Source of the DNA: a virus
Lineage: Duplodnaviria > Heunggongvirae > Uroviricota > Caudoviricetes
Strand: one strand, 5' to 3'
Virus record (IMG/VR): IMGVR_UViG_2681813004_000011
DNA length: 17,781 bases
Within the stretch, counting starts at the first letter, position 1; the number at the start of each line of letters is the position of its first letter. Shown piece after piece: positions 7,872-15,040 of the stretch. The translations under genes and the position numbers were made by a program. The notes beneath the pieces are model-generated. The model made no database searches, had not been told where the DNA came from, and saw nothing but the letters and a program-made list of their open reading frames with translations.

Positions 7872-9232
7872 TTTCGCAGTATCCCCCTGAACATCGCCTT
7901 CACCGCATCACGCTCTGTTTCGCTTATGGCCTTATTACCGTCAGACGCGCCCTCCTGGCGTGTGCCTGACGACGTTTTCCCGGAAGACGCGAACGGATCC
8001 TCACGGGCATCACGACGGGACAGCGCCTCCAGACTGTAGTTCTGCTGCTGAAGATACAGTGCATCACCGCCGGCCAGGGGCGGCAGGTTCTCACGTTTAC
8101 GGGCCTCATTGGGCGTGAGAAGCGTATTTTTCACCGCATCCCCCAGCGTTTTCATGCGCCGCTCACTGTCCATTCTCAGCAGCGTGGTGACATCAAACTC
8201 CGTACTCTCGTTTTCCCCCGTTTCCAGCGCCTCATCCAGTAACAGTTCAATGGACTCAATCAGCGTCTGCAGGCACTGGGAATAATACTGCTGCTCCAGC
8301 GCCTCCACGTTGTCACTGGAAGGCGGCTGGCCAACGCCAATCTTGTAGGCCGGGACACGGAACACCGAACAGACAATTTCAGCGGTCATCTTCAGTTGTT
8401 CCACCGTCTGCGCATCCACAGGTGAAAACGTCGTGGGGTTGTATTTTGCCCCGTTGCTCAGAATGGCCGTTTTCCCCGCATTTTCGCCTGTATACCCGCT
8501 GTCCCAGTTGCTCTTCAGTTTTTTCGCATTTTCTTCCGTAATACTGCCGGGGATCTCAATCACCCCGGACGGCCTGCCGCCATTTCTGAAAAAAGACGTC
8601 GAATTTTCCTGAATATGATGCCCCTGCGTGGCCGCCAGCCCGGCGGCATACACCGGCGGCAATCCTATAAGCGGATGAAAAAAACAGTTAAACCGGTCGT
8701 GGATCACTTCCCGGGCAGGCACCGTCACCGCCTCCGTGATCCCGCAGTTCCGGTCCGGCGTGATGCGGTAGAACACCTCGCCGTCATCCGCCACCAGAGG
8801 TTCAACCCGGCTCCAGTCCAGAATACGCAGTTCTTTGATCTGCCCCCGGGCATTACGGATTTTCAGCACCACCGTATTGCCATGACGCAGTTTGGCGTTC
8901 AGCCACAGTTCAAAAAACTGGATGCGGTTCTGCTGGGCGTTGGGACGACGACAGAGGCGGGCAATATCCCCCCGGCGCGTTTCCCTGCGTATCCCATGCG
9001 CATCCGTCTGCATAAGACGCAGCCGCATTTTGGCGATATCCTGGGATATCAGCGAAATACATGCAAACACCGCATGAAAGGAGAGGACGGCTTCAGGATC
9101 GGCTTTCACGCCCTGCTGCCAGGCGCCGGAAAAGGGCTCAGCCACCGCCTGAAACAGGCTGGTCCAGCCCGCCTCTCTTACGTCACGTCCTGATTTCTGG
9201 TTTTTTCGGGTTCGCCGTAAAAGGTTCCACAT
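7868..9232 (-). CDS. Portal protein (HK97 family)
   Basis: 454-aa ORF with portal-family motifs as recalled: N-terminal FHAVFACISLISQDIA, central FFRNGGRPSGVIEIPG...NWDSGYTGENAGKTAILSNGAKYNPTTFSPVDAQTVEQLK, C-terminal LLRMDSERR...LTPNEARKRENLPPLAGGD, and an acidic tail. Confidence 0.9.
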   Translation of the reverse strand: MWNLLRRTRKNQKSGRDVREAGWTSLFQAVAEPFSGAWQQGVKADPEAVLSFHAVFACISLISQDIAKMRLRLMQTDAHGIRRETRRGDIARLCRRPNAQQNRIQFFELWLNAKLRHGNTVVLKIRNARGQIKELRILDWSRVEPLVADDGEVFYRITPDRNCGITEAVTVPAREVIHDRFNCFFHPLIGLPPVYAAGLAATQGHHIQENSTSFFRNGGRPSGVIEIPGSITEENAKKLKSNWDSGYTGENAGKTAILSNGAKYNPTTFSPVDAQTVEQLKMTAEIVCSVFRVPAYKIGVGQPPSSDNVEALEQQYYSQCLQTLIESIELLLDEALETGENESTEFDVTTLLRMDSERRMKTLGDAVKNTLLTPNEARKRENLPPLAGGDALYLQQQNYSLEALSRRDAREDPFASSGKTSSGTRQEGASDGNKAISETERDAVKAMFRGILRK

Positions 9233-9399
9233 TCGCCATGCTCCGCATCACGTTTCTTTTTCTGACCTGCCGGACGTCGCACCGTGATGTACTCCGCCTT
9301 TCCCAGGCGAACCAGCACCTCCGCACACGGCTGTGCCACATCACGGATATCCCCGGCCCGGGCATCATGCGTGCCCTGCAGATATCGGATCTTTGCCAT
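9178..9399 (-). CDS. Hypothetical small protein (73 aa); may not be real
   Basis: ORF starts right after a GC-rich hairpin downstream of the capsid gene and overlaps the annotated portal start by about 55 nt in another frame. No recognisable motif and a weak SD. Confidence 0.3.
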   Translation of the reverse strand: MAKIRYLQGTHDARAGDIRDVAQPCAEVLVRLGKAEYITVRRPAGQKKKRDAEHGECGTFYGEPEKTRNQDVT

Positions 9400-9409
9400 A
9401 ACCTGTTAC

Positions 9410-9427
9410 GGGAGGCGCACGCCTCCC
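9410..9427 (-). other. GC-rich stem-loop immediately downstream of the capsid gene stop
   Basis: GGGAGGCG-CA-CGCCTCCC forms an 8-bp perfect stem. It lies between an AAGGAGG motif and the ATG at 9399 and has no U-tract after it. Confidence 0.4.
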
Positions 9428-9443
9428 GTCCTCCTTATCAGAC

Positions 9444-11381
9444 TCAGCCGCCGGACGCACTGCCGTAGTTCACTCCGGTGATCACCGCCACCGCCGCAGT
9501 ACGGCGACGACGCCAGTTGATCCAGCGCTCCGCACGGATGGCCACGCTGCCTGTCTGGAACATGGAAACCAGCTCCACCGGGGACGGCGTGGTACTGTCG
9601 CCGGTCGGCTCAGACTGCATTTCCAGTGATGCCTCGCGGGACATATCCACTGCCACGCCGCCGTCATCCGCCAGATAAATATCCGGGGCATTCACCAGCA
9701 CCAGCTGGTCACCCACGTACTGGGAGACAATCACCGGCAGCCCCTGGAAGGAGCCACCCAGCAGGGTCATGTCCGGGTATTCCTTCTGACCCAGCGCATT
9801 TTTACGCATGGACAGTGCCAGGGCATTGGTGCTGGACATCAGCCAGACCGCACCGGTGGGCTGCAGGTTTGCTGCCACAAACTGTCCAAACGCCGCCTCT
9901 GCATCCGCATCCGGGTTACCGGTTGATGCCGTGCCCTTCACATCATGGGTGATGGACGCCGGGGAGACATCTGCCACTGCGGCTTTTTTCGGGTCCACAA
10001 AGTCTGTATCCAGACGCGCCACCACCGCTTCCGCCAGCGCATTACGGACCAGTGCATCAGCAGCCGGACTGGAAAAACGGATCAATTCTTCCGTCAGTAC
10101 CGCAATGGCCGACACTTTCGCATGACTGAAGGTGATGGATTCAAAATCAAACTTCGTCAGGGGTTTTGCCTTACCCTCACCCACCCAGCCGGCAGCACCG
10201 CCGGACACCTGGGCGTGCACACGGATATTGAACGGCACCTGACGAAGTGCAGGGATCCCGCCCTGACCAAATCGCCCGATAATGGTCTGCGGACGCAGGT
10301 AATCAATAAAGTCCTGTGCGTATTCCTGATATTCAGACAGGCTGCCTGCCCACTGCGGATCCGTGGTGGTCCCCGCGCCCACTGCCGATTTCAGGACATG
10401 ATGCAGACGACTGTCATCCGGATACTGACGACGGGCCACTTCCAGGGCTTCAGATCGGACGCCTTTAGCCGCAGCCAGCGATTTGGCAAAGCGGGCGAAG
10501 CCAATCCCCTTATCCAGTTTCTGCTCCACACGGATCACCGGCGCAGAAGCCACCGCGGCCACATTCCCGTTACCGGCCTGTTTCACCGGCTGCGCCGTGG
10601 CGGCCTTACCGGCTTCCAGTTCACGCAGACGCTTCAGGTGCGCATCCACCTGACGGATTTCCGCTGCGGTGTTGTCGTAATGCTCTTCCTCCTCCACATC
10701 CAGCGTGCGCCCTTCCTCTGCGGCTTTGGTCATGACCTCCTCAAGGGAGGCTGCCAGCGCTGCACGCTTGTTTTCAAAACTTTTAATCTGTTCGCCAATA
10801 TTCATTATGGTCTTTTCCTTATGAAAAACGGTTGTTGACTGTGCCGCAGCGCCGGCAGAAGATGCGATTTTCACCACCGGTTTCCGGTTGCCGGACGCGG
10901 CAGAAAACGGGCGGTCGTAAGATTTAATGGTCCGGATGGTGCATTCCGCATTCGCGGGCACGGTGACGGCAGACACCTCCATCAGTTCCCAGCGCAGAAA
11001 ATGCAGTCCGCCTCCGTCCAGAAAGGTGTATTCATGGGGACGGAAGCCCACGGACAGCCCCCTGACCAGCCCGGTCTTAATGGCCGCCCAGACCTCATCC
11101 AGCCGGGCAGCCAGTTGCGACGGCATATCCGGTACGGGCTTCACCAGTGTTGCCGTGATTTCCAGCCCTTCGCTGACCCGGCGTACCGTACACTGCCCCA
11201 CCGGGCGGGAATGGTCATGCTGCCAGAGAAACGGGATCGCACTGCCAAACTCCGCGCCCTCCGGCTCCAGGATGTCACCATCCCGATCCGGAGAAGGTGT
11301 TGACGCAATCCCGGTGATCACCCGTTCATCCTCACTGAAGGATTTCACCGTCAGCAGGGAACAGGCCCGTTTAAGAGTCAC
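9444..11381 (-). CDS. Prohead protease - major capsid protein fusion (HK97-type protease domain + HK97-fold capsid)
   Basis: 645-aa ORF. N-terminal ~170 aa carry prohead protease motifs (ITGIASTPSPDRDGDILEPEGA, IPFLWQHDHSRPVGQ). The remainder has the coiled-coil N-terminal region and C-terminal motifs (GLPVIVSQYVGDQLVLV, SVAIRAERW) typical of HK97-family capsid proteins. GTG start at 11381 preceded by AGGAGG. Confidence 0.85.
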   Translation of the reverse strand: MTLKRACSLLTVKSFSEDERVITGIASTPSPDRDGDILEPEGAEFGSAIPFLWQHDHSRPVGQCTVRRVSEGLEITATLVKPVPDMPSQLAARLDEVWAAIKTGLVRGLSVGFRPHEYTFLDGGGLHFLRWELMEVSAVTVPANAECTIRTIKSYDRPFSAASGNRKPVVKIASSAGAAAQSTTVFHKEKTIMNIGEQIKSFENKRAALAASLEEVMTKAAEEGRTLDVEEEEHYDNTAAEIRQVDAHLKRLRELEAGKAATAQPVKQAGNGNVAAVASAPVIRVEQKLDKGIGFARFAKSLAAAKGVRSEALEVARRQYPDDSRLHHVLKSAVGAGTTTDPQWAGSLSEYQEYAQDFIDYLRPQTIIGRFGQGGIPALRQVPFNIRVHAQVSGGAAGWVGEGKAKPLTKFDFESITFSHAKVSAIAVLTEELIRFSSPAADALVRNALAEAVVARLDTDFVDPKKAAVADVSPASITHDVKGTASTGNPDADAEAAFGQFVAANLQPTGAVWLMSSTNALALSMRKNALGQKEYPDMTLLGGSFQGLPVIVSQYVGDQLVLVNAPDIYLADDGGVAVDMSREASLEMQSEPTGDSTTPSPVELVSMFQTGSVAIRAERWINWRRRRTAAVAVITGVNYGSASGG

Positions 11382-11393
11382 ATCAGCCTCCTG

Positions 11394-11419
11394 AAAATAA
11401 AAAAACCGCCGGAGCGGTT
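11394..11419 (-). terminator. Stem-loop plus U-tract between the large terminase and the capsid gene
   Basis: Minus-strand RNA reads AACCGC-uccg-GCGGUU followed by UUUUUUUAUUUU, then the AGGAGG SD and GTG start of the protease-capsid gene. Confidence 0.45.
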
Positions 11420-11444
11420 CGTGATGGTTACAGTGTGAACAGGG

Positions 11445-13106
11445 TTATATGAAAAAAACCGCATATTCTTTCTTTTTCGGTTCCGGGTTAAGGGACATCA
11501 GGGAGACCGCATTGAACAGCGCCATCAGCGGGTCAATTTTTCCCCGTCCACTGGCCTGTTTGGTGATAAGAATGGCGTTACCTTTAGGCTCCACCCGGGC
11601 ATTGCCGACACACCAGGCCATCAGGGGCTGGTCACCATGCACCAGCACCCCTTCAGCCAGTTTGCGCTCGGTGGTTTTAATGGCCCCGCCCAGTTTCCAG
11701 CCCTGGCTTATCCCCACCACAATTCCGTCGGGGATCCCGGCTTCCGCCAGTGAATCCAGAATCTGCCCCACCCCTGACGGGTCAATACCGATATGGTCCA
11801 GTAACTCAGCCTCATGAATGCGACGCACATATTCCGCCACTTCCGCCGTGTCATCCCCGACACGCCGGACAATGGTCATATCTCCACAGGCAACAAGATC
11901 CTGAAACCGGGACGCCTCGCTCTTCCGTCGGACCACCGCGGCTTCATGCGCCCAGGCATGGCCCCAGCCCAGCCATTCGCGGGTCTCCCGGTCACGCCCA
12001 GTCACATACATCCCCAGCAGATCATCCAGCCCTCCGCCGTCAATCCCCACCGTCACCACATCAGCACGACGCAGGATATCGTCCAGGCTGATACAACGGC
12101 CCTGCTCTTCCCAGAAATCAGCCCCCGCCCAGCGGTCAGAGCGCAGGGCAAGACCAATTTCCACATTGGCGTGTTTTGACATGAACCCCCGGAATGTCTC
12201 TTCACCGGCTTCCCGGGCTTTACGGTACTCCCGGTACAGAAAGGCCTCATCCACTGAATAGCCGAGATTCGGATTGACCATGGCGAGGTTTTCCATCAGC
12301 AGGTGAGCCCCGCTTTCCACCATTTCAGGAGGGTGTTCAAATATCACCGGCAGAAAGTGCGGATCATGAATTTTGCCGTCGCGCACATCCCGGGCGTACT
12401 GCAGTTTCTGTCTGAATACCCCGGCGGGCGGTTCATTCGACTGGGTGGTCGTATACACCACAAACCCTTCCGGGCGGGAGGCAAGGCCGCCTATGGCTTC
12501 ACGTAACATGTCCTCCGCCTTGCACTGCTTGCCAAACAGCCACAACTCATCAATCAGCGTACCCACGGACTTGATACCGGACACCGTATTCGGATCGGCT
12601 GCCACCACCTTCAGGGTGGTGTCTGTCACCCTGTGGGTGATGGTCCGGATATGTGTCTGCACCTGGCAGAGGTCATCCAGATCATCGTCACGTCGTACCA
12701 TATCCCGGGCAGGGTTGAAGGCGTTGGCCGCCACCTCCACAGTCGGGGCCAGAATCGTGTAACCCGCCGCCTGCCGCCAGTTCAGTAACAGCGCCGTCAT
12801 CATGATCCCCGCGGCCAGCGTGGACTTCGAGTTTTTCTTGGGGATAAGGATAAAAACTTCCTTGATATGGCGTACACCGGTCTGCGCATCGTAGGAGCCA
12901 AACAGGGCCGCCACCAGGTCAAACACCCACGGTGCACAGGACTCCCCGAACGTCGGGCTACCAGGTGCATCCACAATCCGCAGTTGTTTAAAAATCGCCA
13001 GGGCATGTGCGGCCTCGTCCGGATAAATCGGATCCGGAATAATCGACAGCCCCTTTTTCAGGCGCTCTGCCCAGTCCGGGCAGGCTGTGCTCCATACAGG
13101 TATCAT
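11445..13106 (-). CDS. Terminase large subunit
   Basis: 553-aa ORF with an N-terminal ATPase region (Walker A-like PKKNSKSTLAAG, Walker B-like LIDELW) and a C-terminal nuclease-like region (GIDPSG...KIDPLMALFNA). Its start overlaps the small-subunit stop. Confidence 0.9.
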   Translation of the reverse strand: MIPVWSTACPDWAERLKKGLSIIPDPIYPDEAAHALAIFKQLRIVDAPGSPTFGESCAPWVFDLVAALFGSYDAQTGVRHIKEVFILIPKKNSKSTLAAGIMMTALLLNWRQAAGYTILAPTVEVAANAFNPARDMVRRDDDLDDLCQVQTHIRTITHRVTDTTLKVVAADPNTVSGIKSVGTLIDELWLFGKQCKAEDMLREAIGGLASRPEGFVVYTTTQSNEPPAGVFRQKLQYARDVRDGKIHDPHFLPVIFEHPPEMVESGAHLLMENLAMVNPNLGYSVDEAFLYREYRKAREAGEETFRGFMSKHANVEIGLALRSDRWAGADFWEEQGRCISLDDILRRADVVTVGIDGGGLDDLLGMYVTGRDRETREWLGWGHAWAHEAAVVRRKSEASRFQDLVACGDMTIVRRVGDDTAEVAEYVRRIHEAELLDHIGIDPSGVGQILDSLAEAGIPDGIVVGISQGWKLGGAIKTTERKLAEGVLVHGDQPLMAWCVGNARVEPKGNAILITKQASGRGKIDPLMALFNAVSLMSLNPEPKKKEYAVFFI

Positions 13107-13666
13107 CCGCTTTCCTCATTATCGTTATTCACCACCAGTCGGGGTGGCGGTGGCACCGCAAAACGGTTAGCCGCTTTTTTCGCGGCATCACCTTTTGCCG
13201 ATTTTTTCCCGGTATCCCCTTTTTTATGGTGCGTGAACTGCGCCAGACGCCAGGCCGCATCCAGTGCCAGTTTCGGATCAATGCAGAGGTTTTCCACCAG
13301 GATCCGCCCCATGGCTTTCACCGGATCGGGAAGACCATCCTCCATATATTCAATACCAGGAGACATCACCGCGGACGGTGGCATCTCCGGATTTTTTTCG
13401 TCCGGCTGTGGTATTGCAGCCACCTCACGGCGACGGGGTTTATCCTCCTGCTCTGATTTTTTCTGCCGGTAAACAGGAACCTCATCCACCTCCACCGTTT
13501 CGCACTGTTTACGGGCTATAAACGCAAGCACCTCCGGATCTTTTGCCAGCTGCGAGCCTTTAACCCTGGCGGTCTTCGCCGAATAACCGGCGGCAATGGC
13601 TGACGCTGTTTTGTTTTTCCCGGACATGAGCGCCAGCGCAAATTTTCGTTTTTGCGTTGTCAGCAC
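13103..13666 (-). CDS. Terminase small subunit
   Basis: 187-aa ORF immediately upstream of and overlapping the large subunit. N-terminal HTH-like segment (ALALMSGKNKTASAIAAGYSAKTARVKGSQLAKDPEV) and a basic C-terminal tail. GTG start preceded by GGAGGAGG. Confidence 0.7.
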   Translation of the reverse strand: MLTTQKRKFALALMSGKNKTASAIAAGYSAKTARVKGSQLAKDPEVLAFIARKQCETVEVDEVPVYRQKKSEQEDKPRRREVAAIPQPDEKNPEMPPSAVMSPGIEYMEDGLPDPVKAMGRILVENLCIDPKLALDAAWRLAQFTHHKKGDTGKKSAKGDAAKKAANRFAVPPPPRLVVNNDNEESG

Positions 13667-13736
13667 AGCCTCCTCCCGGGTCCATAACGCACTCAGCCGG
13701 GTATGGTTCAGCCCATTTTTCCCGGCGTCTCATGCC

Positions 13737-13866
13737 GCAAATGTTAACTGCTGCCTGGTTAACATTTGCTGAAAAAGCCAGTTAACATTTTTTTCGCACA
13801 ACAAACTGAATAATAAAGATAAAAACCGAAAAAATGCCCGGGCAGCCAGTTAACATGTTAACTGGC
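13737..13866. promoter_or_regulatory. Cluster of GTTAAC-containing palindromes between HNH and terS (candidate terminase recognition / cos-proximal region)
   Basis: Five GTTAAC cores within 130 bp: an inverted repeat GCAAATGTTAAC-N9-GTTAACATTTGC (13737..13769), CCAGTTAACAT (13778..13788), and a perfect 22-bp palindrome GCCAGTTAACATGTTAACTGGC (13845..13866). A C8 run follows at 13941..13948. Confidence 0.45.
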
Positions 13867-13955
13867 CTGAAACAGGAATTTTTTCTCTGCGTGAGAGGGG
13901 GCGCGGTGTCCGGAGCGATCGTTTTTTACGCCGGATGATACCCCCCCCGCTCGGG

Positions 13956-14321
13956 TTACAGTCCGATGATGTCGTCCGCTCTGCCACTACCTCCGGACAC
14001 CTCCGGCAGCGTCGGGTCCGGCATACCACCCGCCGCTTCACGAGCAGACTTTTGTCGATGGCATTCGGTACAGAGCGTCCAGAGATTCGTCTCCTCATTA
14101 CCACCACCGAACTGAAGTGCAATTCGGTGATCGAGTTCACTGTCACAGAGGTCAACCACACGACCACAGAGACAGCACTGCCCGGCATCCCTGAGCCAGA
14201 TATGACGCTTGAGGGAAACACGTGCACTGCCACTGACACGACGCTGTTCACCCTTCAGAATATTCACCCGTCGGGTATTCAGTGTTTTGATTCTGCTCTG
14301 GAGTGTACGAAGCTCAGCCAT
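13956..14321 (-). CDS. HNH endonuclease (terminase-associated)
   Basis: 121-aa ORF with a Cys-rich HNH motif (CCLCGRVVD...ELDHRIALQFGGGNEETNLWTLCTECHRQK). Located just upstream of terS, as in HK97-like cos phages. Confidence 0.85.
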   Translation of the reverse strand: MAELRTLQSRIKTLNTRRVNILKGEQRRVSGSARVSLKRHIWLRDAGQCCLCGRVVDLCDSELDHRIALQFGGGNEETNLWTLCTECHRQKSAREAAGGMPDPTLPEVSGGSGRADDIIGL

Positions 14322-14693: not shown

Positions 14694-15020
14694 TCAGGGT
14701 GCAGAAGGACTAAAGATAAACGTTTTCTTCACGCCTTTACGCGGCCTGTCCTTCTCAAATCGCCATTTTGCCATCGCCTTTACAACCTGCTCATCAAACA
14801 GATGGTGCGGCTCTGAACGGATAAACTCAATTCGGGTGACAGTACCATCAGCACCAATATCAAACTTCACATCAACCCGTCCCTTTATATAATTTGCCGC
14901 TGCATAGGCCGGATATTGTGGTAATGCCTTAACCAACTGTCGGGGCATATCTGTTTTATGTTGCGTACAGCCCATAACCAGAGAAGACAACAAAATAATT
15001 AACGGAAGATTTCTTTTCAT
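14694..15020 (-). CDS. Lipoprotein carrying a TonB C-terminal domain
   Basis: Signal peptide plus lipobox-like cysteine (MKRNLPLIILLSSLVMGC). The mature part (PQYPAYAAANYIKGRVDVKFDIGADGTVTRIEFIRSEPHHLFDEQVVKAMAKWRFE) aligns well with the E. coli TonB C-terminal domain as recalled ([56 protein letters not shown]). The likely start is the ATG at 15020; the ORF track extends it to a GTG at 15035. The region looks AT-rich by eye. Confidence 0.8.
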   Translation of the reverse strand: MKRNLPLIILLSSLVMGCTQHKTDMPRQLVKALPQYPAYAAANYIKGRVDVKFDIGADGTVTRIEFIRSEPHHLFDEQVVKAMAKWRFEKDRPRKGVKKTFIFSPSAP

Positions 15021-15040
15021 TTTCATTCCCGGCACAGATA

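Follow-up and report, generated by a model that had tools for sequence, protein, structure and literature searches.

What does the non-coding gap between the HNH endonuclease gene and the small terminase gene (terS) of a lambdoid E. coli prophage do, and which protein reads the cluster of GTTAAC palindromes inside it? The gap measures 289 bp (13667-13955) and lies, with both flanking genes on the minus strand, in IMGVR_UViG_2681813004_000011, a 17,781-nucleotide tailed-phage sequence that was analyzed at its full length and is called the window here. A sequence-only reading had proposed this cluster as a candidate terminase recognition or cohesive-end (cos) region, pointing to five GTTAAC cores arranged as an inverted repeat, a half-site, and a 22-bp palindrome, and to a run of eight C residues. 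All of these elements were recovered at the same coordinates, and the location between the HNH gene and terS was confirmed by Pfam. Our analysis indicates that the gap probably serves as cos in a lambdoid E. coli prophage belonging to the Shiga toxin (Stx)-converting 2851/1717 group, with a cleavage core and a cosB-like array of repeats that the small terminase protein TerS would read. The features of the region are listed in Table 1.

The position of the cut was derived from phage Lys8385Vzw (MT225100), a close relative of the window phage that was induced and sequenced from particles. Lys8385Vzw was reported as a cos phage with 3' cohesive ends, CGCCCCCCCT, placed at the genome end by PhageTerm (PMC7946995). 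Its record ends in ...GGACACCGCCCCCCCT and starts with CTCACGCAGAGAAAAAATTCC, followed by the palindrome and the repeats as in the window, and the minus strand of the window reads ...GGACACCGCGCCCCCT directly followed by CTCACGCAGAGAAAAAATTCC across the homologous point. The record ends of Lys8385Vzw correspond to 13895/13896, inside the interval proposed earlier as the cos region and between the palindrome and the C8 run; a cohesive end CGCGCCCCCT at 13905-13896 is therefore predicted from this homology. The virion ends have been seen in the close relative, and for the window they are deduced from near-identity to it. Packaging would start from 13895 and proceed in the direction of terS, and the strand positions of the two nicks are likewise predicted ones. 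No second mapped end was found when a phage collection was searched with the cos core of the relatives, which returned the same group of Stx phages and Salmonella phage FSL SP-016, the record of which is a partial genome. The site sequences were absent from the literature searched, and PMC7946995 was the sole relevant paper in searches for these or for the cohesive-end sequence. Directly after the cut, CTCAYNYNNAGAAAA is kept in nearly all of about 120 unique relatives, including those with other alleles of the TerS DNA-binding domain and other repeat types. The block CTCAYNYNNAGAAAA(W)(W)T at +1 to +21 (counted from the cut in the direction of terS) is also kept in a Burkholderia locus.

Farther downstream lies the repeat array. 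GTTAAC occurs eight times in the window, with five of the copies at 13743-13862; the mean after shuffling is 2.3 per whole window, and none of 200 shuffles reached eight. The real repeat unit is longer than this core and is an asymmetric 8-mer, ATGTTAAC, whose five copies in the window all fall inside 13741-13862 (122 bp), where 0.32 copies are expected in the window and 0/200 shuffles reached five. The units are grouped as an inverted pair (A/A'), a single unit (B), and a second, more widely spaced inverted pair (C/C'). The copy at site B (13777-13791) was matched by the repeat tool to one arm of the palindrome at 15/16 positions, and the same tool described C/C' as a 12-nt perfect inverted repeat (13737-13748 and 13758-13769) with a 9-nt gap. 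The A/T-rich DNA between the repeats, proposed earlier to bend or to bind integration host factor (IHF), is indeed A+T-rich. T-tracts at +62, +71, +79, and +91 and an A6 tract at +102 are phased in a way that suggests a candidate intrinsic bend at 13789-13844. The IHF reading has no support beyond chance: the match with one mismatch at 13811-13799 is 1 of 25 in the window compared with 16 expected, which is not significant. Neither an intrinsic terminator nor a promoter was detected above shuffle expectation, and the only promoter-like match (13759-13788, plus strand) is made of the repeats themselves.

The units are conserved both in sequence and in position. Among 30 unique close-relative sequences, 2/38 unit positions vary compared with 62/171 other positions (Fisher p=6.5e-5). 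The conservation of the palindrome in related phages, which had been suggested as a check, was borne out for the units, which are kept at the same positions; the outermost palindrome positions vary, leaving a palindrome of 18-20 bp instead of 22 in many close relatives. Across 14 non-redundant lineages, GTTAAC reaches a density of 20 per kb in the interval from +20 to the start of terS, versus 0.2 per kb elsewhere in the loci. The enrichment extends to lineages in which the copies are direct repeats outside coding sequence, such as TTGTTAACC present twice with terS at +64. Lineages of a second type (type II, the GTTAAC form being type I) encode TerS proteins that are 77-89% identical and have the same architecture and positions, with all five units reading ATGTTTAY. 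The units lie at 34, 40, 108, 131-132, and 148-149 in types I and II, and the spacer length is kept despite sequence divergence. The palindrome of the lineages with the KSARCKG allele (type II) is TATAAACATGTTTATA and C/C' in type II lineages is AAATGTTTAC-AGGGCAGCG-GTAAACATTT, whereas site B copies the palindrome arm of its own lineage, flanks included (ATGTTAACCACC in L170; ATGTTTATACCC in L167, L168, and L294).

Repeat content between +20 and terS was then scored by the allele of the putative TerS recognition helix. Loci with KTARVKGSQL have exactly five GTTAAC and no GTTTAY (30 unique sequences from 80 loci), those with KSARCKGSQL have no GTTAAC and five GTTTAY (4 unique sequences from 5 loci), and those with KTARVKGWQL, which are satellite-like islands, have two to four GTTACAC (3 unique sequences from 8 loci). 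The allele KSARSKGSQL, found with a shorter form of the region, goes with a hybrid GTAAAC-ATG-TTAAC (38 unique sequences from 76 loci). The prediction made after the first three lineages, that a type II allele would accompany GTTTAY and a type I allele GTTAAC, was tested on loci fetched for two further type II proteins and one further type I variant, and held in every fetched locus. In two loci, L295 and L296, the HNH 3' end and the cos core as far as +21 are of the window type, but the repeats and the DNA-binding domain are type II, and the C-terminal half of their TerS (P0020) is almost identical to that of P0012 from a window-type lineage. Conversely, P0038 and P0054 share a common TerS C terminus and differ in both DNA-binding domain and motif. 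As far as sequence comparison goes, the repeat type tracks the N-terminal domain of TerS and nothing else that could be checked. Conservation, enrichment, concerted change, and co-variation with TerS together argue that the repeats are functional and are read by one factor; in their conservation, their fixed positions, and their switching with the allele of the TerS DNA-binding domain they appear to behave as the small-terminase recognition array that the sequence-only reading had envisaged.

The most likely reader, on these comparisons, is the helix-turn-helix domain formed by TerS residues 1-56. AlphaFold2 models these residues with a predicted local distance difference test score (pLDDT) >92 as a four-helix domain (helices 4-14, 19-25, 30-41, and 44-56). 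The best Foldseek match of the N-terminal domain is the DNA-binding domain of SF6 G1P (4zc3; TM score 0.84, root mean square deviation 1.6 Å, 30% identity), followed in order by 2cmp, the full-length SPP1-like TerS, and the PaP3 TerS, and a profile search with TerS also matches 4zc3 (E=0.004). Helix 3 is expected from the model to be the recognition helix. The residues that co-vary with the repeat type, 25, 32, 35, and 38, fall within this helix and at the end of helix 2.

Inverted repeats could instead act as hairpins in the RNA of the late transcript or as DNA cruciforms, working as a terminator or attenuator, in mRNA stability, or in the control of terS translation, with no protein reading them as sites. 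We regard this as unlikely, despite some features in its favor. Two of the three repeat groups are perfect inverted repeats, the changes from type I to type II keep complementarity (GTTAAC becomes GTTTAC and GTAAAC, which pair), and the leader RNA folds somewhat better than shuffles do (z=-2.0), its centroid structure containing the 13769-13737 hairpin. There is also one weak hairpin with a 5-bp stem and a T-run at 13841-13826 on the minus strand. However, a z score of -2 is modest, and the count of terminator-like structures is 1 compared with 0.8 in shuffles. Site B is unpaired and yet changes in concert with the other units, and other lineages carry the unit as direct repeats that cannot pair (AAAAGTTACAC twice, TTGTTAACC twice). 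The first site and the terS start codon overlap in most relatives, which leaves no room for a regulatory hairpin, and hairpin formation does not predict that the repeats switch together with residues of the TerS recognition helix.

This overlap with the start codon bears on the origin of the array. About 100 relatives have a terS that begins with ATG TTA ACA at +39/+40, so that the first site overlaps the start codon; the palindrome of the window is centered on that ATG, about 190 bp before the start of the window's own terS. The long form was seen exclusively in E. coli-type lineages, and the array probably grew, judging from these sequences, by duplication of the terS start region. The extra units might on that account be functionless debris, that is, duplicated terS 5' ends (ATG TTA ACN, encoding Met-Leu-Thr) left by an insertion of about 190 bp between the ancestral start and the present terS. 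The start with ATGTTAAC at the palindrome center in the relatives, the confinement of the long form to E. coli-type lineages, and the resemblance of unit C with its flank, ATGTTAACCAGGCAGCAG, to ATGTTAACAGGGCAGAAA, which encodes MLTGQK, are all in keeping with such a history. Debris would be expected to decay, however, and the five units are invariant beside varying bases, their positions are kept, and type II lineages show a joint change of all five. A duplication origin is compatible with a present function, and we consider loss of function very unlikely. A 24-codon hydrophobic open reading frame (MLTGCPGIFSVFIFIIQFVVRKKC, 13856-13782, minus strand) begins at the palindrome ATG, the ancestral terS start, and stops in the TAA of the next unit. 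It was rejected as a gene, having no Shine-Dalgarno sequence and being broken in frame by 1-nt indels in some relatives, and is probably a fossil. Phage FSL SP-016 (KC139516.1, about 2500-2615) is the one phage record from outside E. coli in which this cos core was found, at 87% identity to the short-form consensus. Its annotated terS start falls inside the cos core, which agrees with the short form and a first site overlapping the start codon.

The least credible of the three alternatives is that some protein apart from TerS reads the repeats, whether HNH, TerL, a nucleoid protein of the host, or a regulator of the phage: HNH and TerL must work within 30-150 bp of the repeats and HK97 gp74 stimulates cos cleavage (PMC11331095, PMC9410871), but both HNH 3'-end alleles, compared as partial sequences, occur with both repeat types, the C-terminal half of TerS is uncoupled from the repeat type, among the parts compared the N-terminal domain of TerS alone tracks it, and satellite-like islands without an adjacent HNH gene keep their own repeats beside their own terS.

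The proposed recognition of the array by TerS suggests a mechanism in which the gap is divided into two functional halves. The upstream half (about 13948-13875, minus strand) would be an HK97-like cleavage core, in which the G tract is followed about 45 nt on by CGCGCCCCCT and then by the A-tract block at +1 to +21, and a cut by TerL and the HNH protein would leave CGCGCCCCCT as the 3' cohesive end. The downstream half (13866-13737) would be a cosB-like recognition array of five ATGTTAAC units, read by the helix-turn-helix domains of an oligomeric TerS at the inverted pair at +34/+40, which would fit the two-motif grip proposed for PaP3, and at the three downstream units. A bent spacer would let one TerS oligomer grip both groups of sites, and this grip would in turn keep TerL and HNH in place at the cut site, which lies 30-40 bp away. 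Packaging specificity would then be set by the repeat sequence together with the N-terminal domain of TerS, with a cleavage core common to all specificities. We infer TerS binding, bending, and all later steps of this mechanism.

Several observations weigh against assigning recognition to the repeats and TerS in this way. The G1P proteins of SF6 and SPP1, structurally the closest small terminases, bind DNA with little sequence specificity in vitro, according to a passage in PMC7672466. The cut site is placed by one PhageTerm result in a relative and by analogy with HK97. The strongest family-wide conservation is found in the +1 to +21 block with its A-tract and exceeds that of the repeats. HK97 TerS requires a G plus an A-tract at +15 to +29 (PMC11331095), and a G plus A6 tract exists in the window at +11 to +17; because HK97 TerS reads these elements at a similar place, part of the recognition by TerS (or by TerL or HNH) may lie in the +1 to +21 block. 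The argument from co-variation is weakened because the sites and the codons of the DNA-binding domain are physically linked within about 250 bp, and the association could partly reflect a single recombination block and not co-adaptation. Finally, the arrangement as inverted pairs means that lineage-specific changes also keep hairpin potential.

Extending the TerS-array reading to the relatives, it is quite possible, though short of probable, that one HK97-like core serves many Enterobacterales prophages and satellite-like islands, with specificity residing in a swappable cassette of array and TerS. There would be at least three E. coli specificities (GTTAAC, GTTTAY, and GTTACAC), satellites with a private TerS and repeats would use the TerL and HNH of a helper, and co-resident prophages of Stx-producing E. 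coli would package each other's DNA when their cassettes match and not when they differ. Should repeats and TerS domain indeed set specificity, the repeat type would predict which co-resident prophages, defective prophages, and satellites each terminase can package, which toxin and effector genes travel together, and toward which DNA the private TerS of a satellite redirects the helper terminase. The three matched sets of allele and site would also show how a TerS of the Terminase_2 type reads DNA in a natural system. The direct value lies in a testable code of packaging specificity among Stx prophages and satellites.

The satellite-like islands are small integrative elements, seen in E. coli GCA_012987925.1 (L301, about 3400-12000) and in four further loci (L171, L172, L299, and L300). 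They are arranged as an integrase, small genes, an AAA_25 primase (or AlpA), a G7 tract with the cos core, their own terS, and a capsid-like gene. The cut core is the same (GGACACCGCCCCCCGT before the cut and CTCATTCGTAGAAAATTTT after it), TerS has the KTARVKGWQL allele, and there is no adjacent HNH gene. After the cut, AAAAGTTACAC is repeated in 2-5 copies in place of GTTAAC. Judged by sequence, these islands look like satellites that keep the cut site of a helper with a private TerS specificity.

The C8 run, G8 in the direction of transcription, was considered as the cohesive end itself and rejected, as the mapped end of Lys8385Vzw falls 36 nt further on. Relatives from many genera, among them Atlantibacter, Kluyvera, Enterobacter, Kosakonia, Serratia, Erwinia, Pantoea, and Morganella, carry a G-rich run 39-45 nt ahead of the cut, with varying flanks; it is G7-G12 in most relatives and shorter or interrupted in a few. 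HK97 itself has a G9 run 42 nt from its cut. Among otherwise near-identical relatives (L004-L083) the tract length ranges over G7-G11, which could be due to slippage or assembly error. Homology to phages of the 2851/1717/BP-4795 type breaks off exactly at the G tract. Its role might conceivably be cosQ-like or related to HNH. In a PPompW prophage (L293, LC567822.1, 2775-4233), ISEc20, an insertion sequence (IS) of the IS110 family, sits inside the C/G tract at about window position 13944. The junctions are ...GGATGATCCCCC on one side of the IS and CCCCCCCGAAAGG on the other, and the tract is split from the cut site. In PPompW prophages Q and the tRNAs run straight to the IS, without lysis genes and HNH, which probably leaves these prophages with a crippled cos. 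ISEc20 may have the homopolymer as its target.

The late genes of the prophage are carried on the minus strand of the window in the order lysozyme, Rz, a TonB_C-like gene, HNH, the gap, terS, terL, a protease-capsid fusion, and portal. The HNH gene adjoins cos immediately upstream in the direction of transcription and packaging, and its counterparts in related phage and E. coli records are labeled HNH endonuclease or DNase. The Pfam Terminase_2 profile alignment begins at residue 2 of the GTG-started TerS. The corresponding gap is present, at 95-98% identity, in 92 records of Stx1a-, Stx2a-, and Stx2c-converting and related phages, including 2851, 1717, YYZ-2008, and BP-4795, and the phages that bear it are long-tailed Stx1-, Stx2a-, and Stx2c-converting phages. 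The gap was found in 1278/5426 complete E. coli genomes at 3002 places, with up to 7 per genome, and in the E. coli records with the gap the HNH gene is the sole annotation under it. At 7868-13106 in the window, terL is followed by a 645-aa fusion of prohead protease and major capsid protein (Peptidase_S78 and Phage_capsid) and then by the portal gene, an order that departs from the usual HK97 order of terL, portal, protease, and capsid. A 113-aa open reading frame with a TonB C-terminal domain (Pfam E=5.8e-15) lies at 14694-15035 on the minus strand between the lysis genes and HNH, and its counterpart in Lys8385Vzw is labeled "protein TonB."

Table 1. Coordinates of the cos region and its flanking genes in the window; signed distances are counted from the predicted cut toward terS
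Feature	Position	Strand	Description
HNH endonuclease gene	13956..14321	-	121 aa; Pfam HNH PF01844, E=7.5e-7
G8 tract (C8 on +)	13941..13948	-	-53..-46 from cut; conserved upstream cos element
10-nt 3' cohesive end (predicted)	13896..13905	-	CGCGCCCCCT (AGGGGGCGCG on +); terS-sense cut between 13896 and 13895
Left-end block, +1..+21	13875..13895	-	CTCACGCAGAGAAAAAATTCC; A6 tract at +12..+17 (13884-13879)
Site A/A'	13845..13866	.	perfect 22-bp palindrome GCCAGTTAACATGTTAACTGGC; two inverted ATGTTAAC units, starting at +34 (reverse) and +40 (forward)
A+T-rich spacer	13789..13844	-	66% A+T vs 45% for window; ~56 bp between A/A' and the other three units
Site B	13778..13788	-	single ATGTTAAC unit, starting at +108 (forward); flanks copy palindrome right arm (ATGTTAACTGGC)
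Sites C/C'	13737..13769	.	two inverted ATGTTAAC units, starting at +131 (forward) and +148 (reverse)
terS leader	13667..13736	-	Shine-Dalgarno GGGAGGAGG before GTG start
terS	13103..13666	-	187 aa; Pfam Terminase_2, E=1.9e-8
terL	11445..13106	-	553 aa; Pfam TerL_ATPase and TerL_nuclease

Among known systems, HK97 (HNH gp74, TerS gp1, and TerL gp2) has the same gene order of HNH, cos, terS, and terL, with a G tract some 42-45 nt ahead of the cut. A C-rich 3' overhang of 10 nt is shared as well, judging from the relative Lys8385Vzw. In HK97 the HNH gene is followed by G9, 42 nt, the right end ...GACCGCCGCCAAA, the cut, and terS at +50, a layout that supports the geometry deduced for the window. 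TerL is related to HK97 gp2 (BLASTP, 23% identity over about 490 residues, E=2e-11), whereas a comparison of TerS with HK97 gp1 gave no detectable sequence similarity (best E=1.1). The HK97-like character implied by the sequence-only reading is upheld for gene order, TerL, and, as judged from the relative, end geometry, and not for TerS, whose sequence is of the SF6/SPP1-type Terminase_2. Recognition of the HK97 type was rejected for a TerS that is unrelated in sequence to gp1. HK97 TerS reads one 15-bp site at +15 to +29 that threads into its channel (PMC11331095). The window differs in having five repeats over +34 to +155 and a TerS predicted to carry an external helix-turn-helix domain. Gene order and the TerL relationship place the module in the HK97-like, HNH-dependent class, the end type having been seen only in the relative.

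The N-terminal domain of TerS has the same fold and belongs to the same Pfam family as that of SPP1/SF6 G1P. G1P makes contact with short boxes that recur in bent DNA next to the cut. Both SPP1 and SF6 package by the headful (pac) mechanism, whereas the module described here has defined cohesive ends in a close relative. PaP3 is a cos phage whose TerS also has an N-terminal helix-turn-helix and is a weak Foldseek match (E ~1-3), but it has a single site and no HNH-dependent module. Its TerS is nonameric, and a model has been proposed in which two neighboring motifs hold a site of about 20 bp at its two ends (PMC7672466), an arrangement that would fit the 22-bp palindrome of the window.

The organization of the recognition region also resembles that of lambda, with a nick site followed toward the small-terminase gene by several short repeats in mixed orientation that are split by a bendable spacer. 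Lambda cos consists of cosQ, cosN, and cosB, the last with the R3-I1-R2-R1 sites that are read by the winged helix-turn-helix of gpNu1. The lambda site is about 200 bp long with subsites, as a passage in PMC4669245 describes it. The two systems differ in that TerS here is of the Terminase_2 family and not gpNu1, that an HNH protein is part of the module, that the overhangs (in the relative Lys8385Vzw) are 10-nt 3' ends compared with the 12-nt 5' ends of lambda, and that the unit is 8 bp compared with about 16 bp in lambda, with no convincing IHF site found in the window. As among lambda, 21, and N15, specificity would lie in a matched pair of repeat and TerS N-terminal domain, with a common cutting core. 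Because TerS is of the SF6/SPP1-type Terminase_2, the recognition logic of this locus would be nearer to that of lambda cosB than to the single site of HK97.

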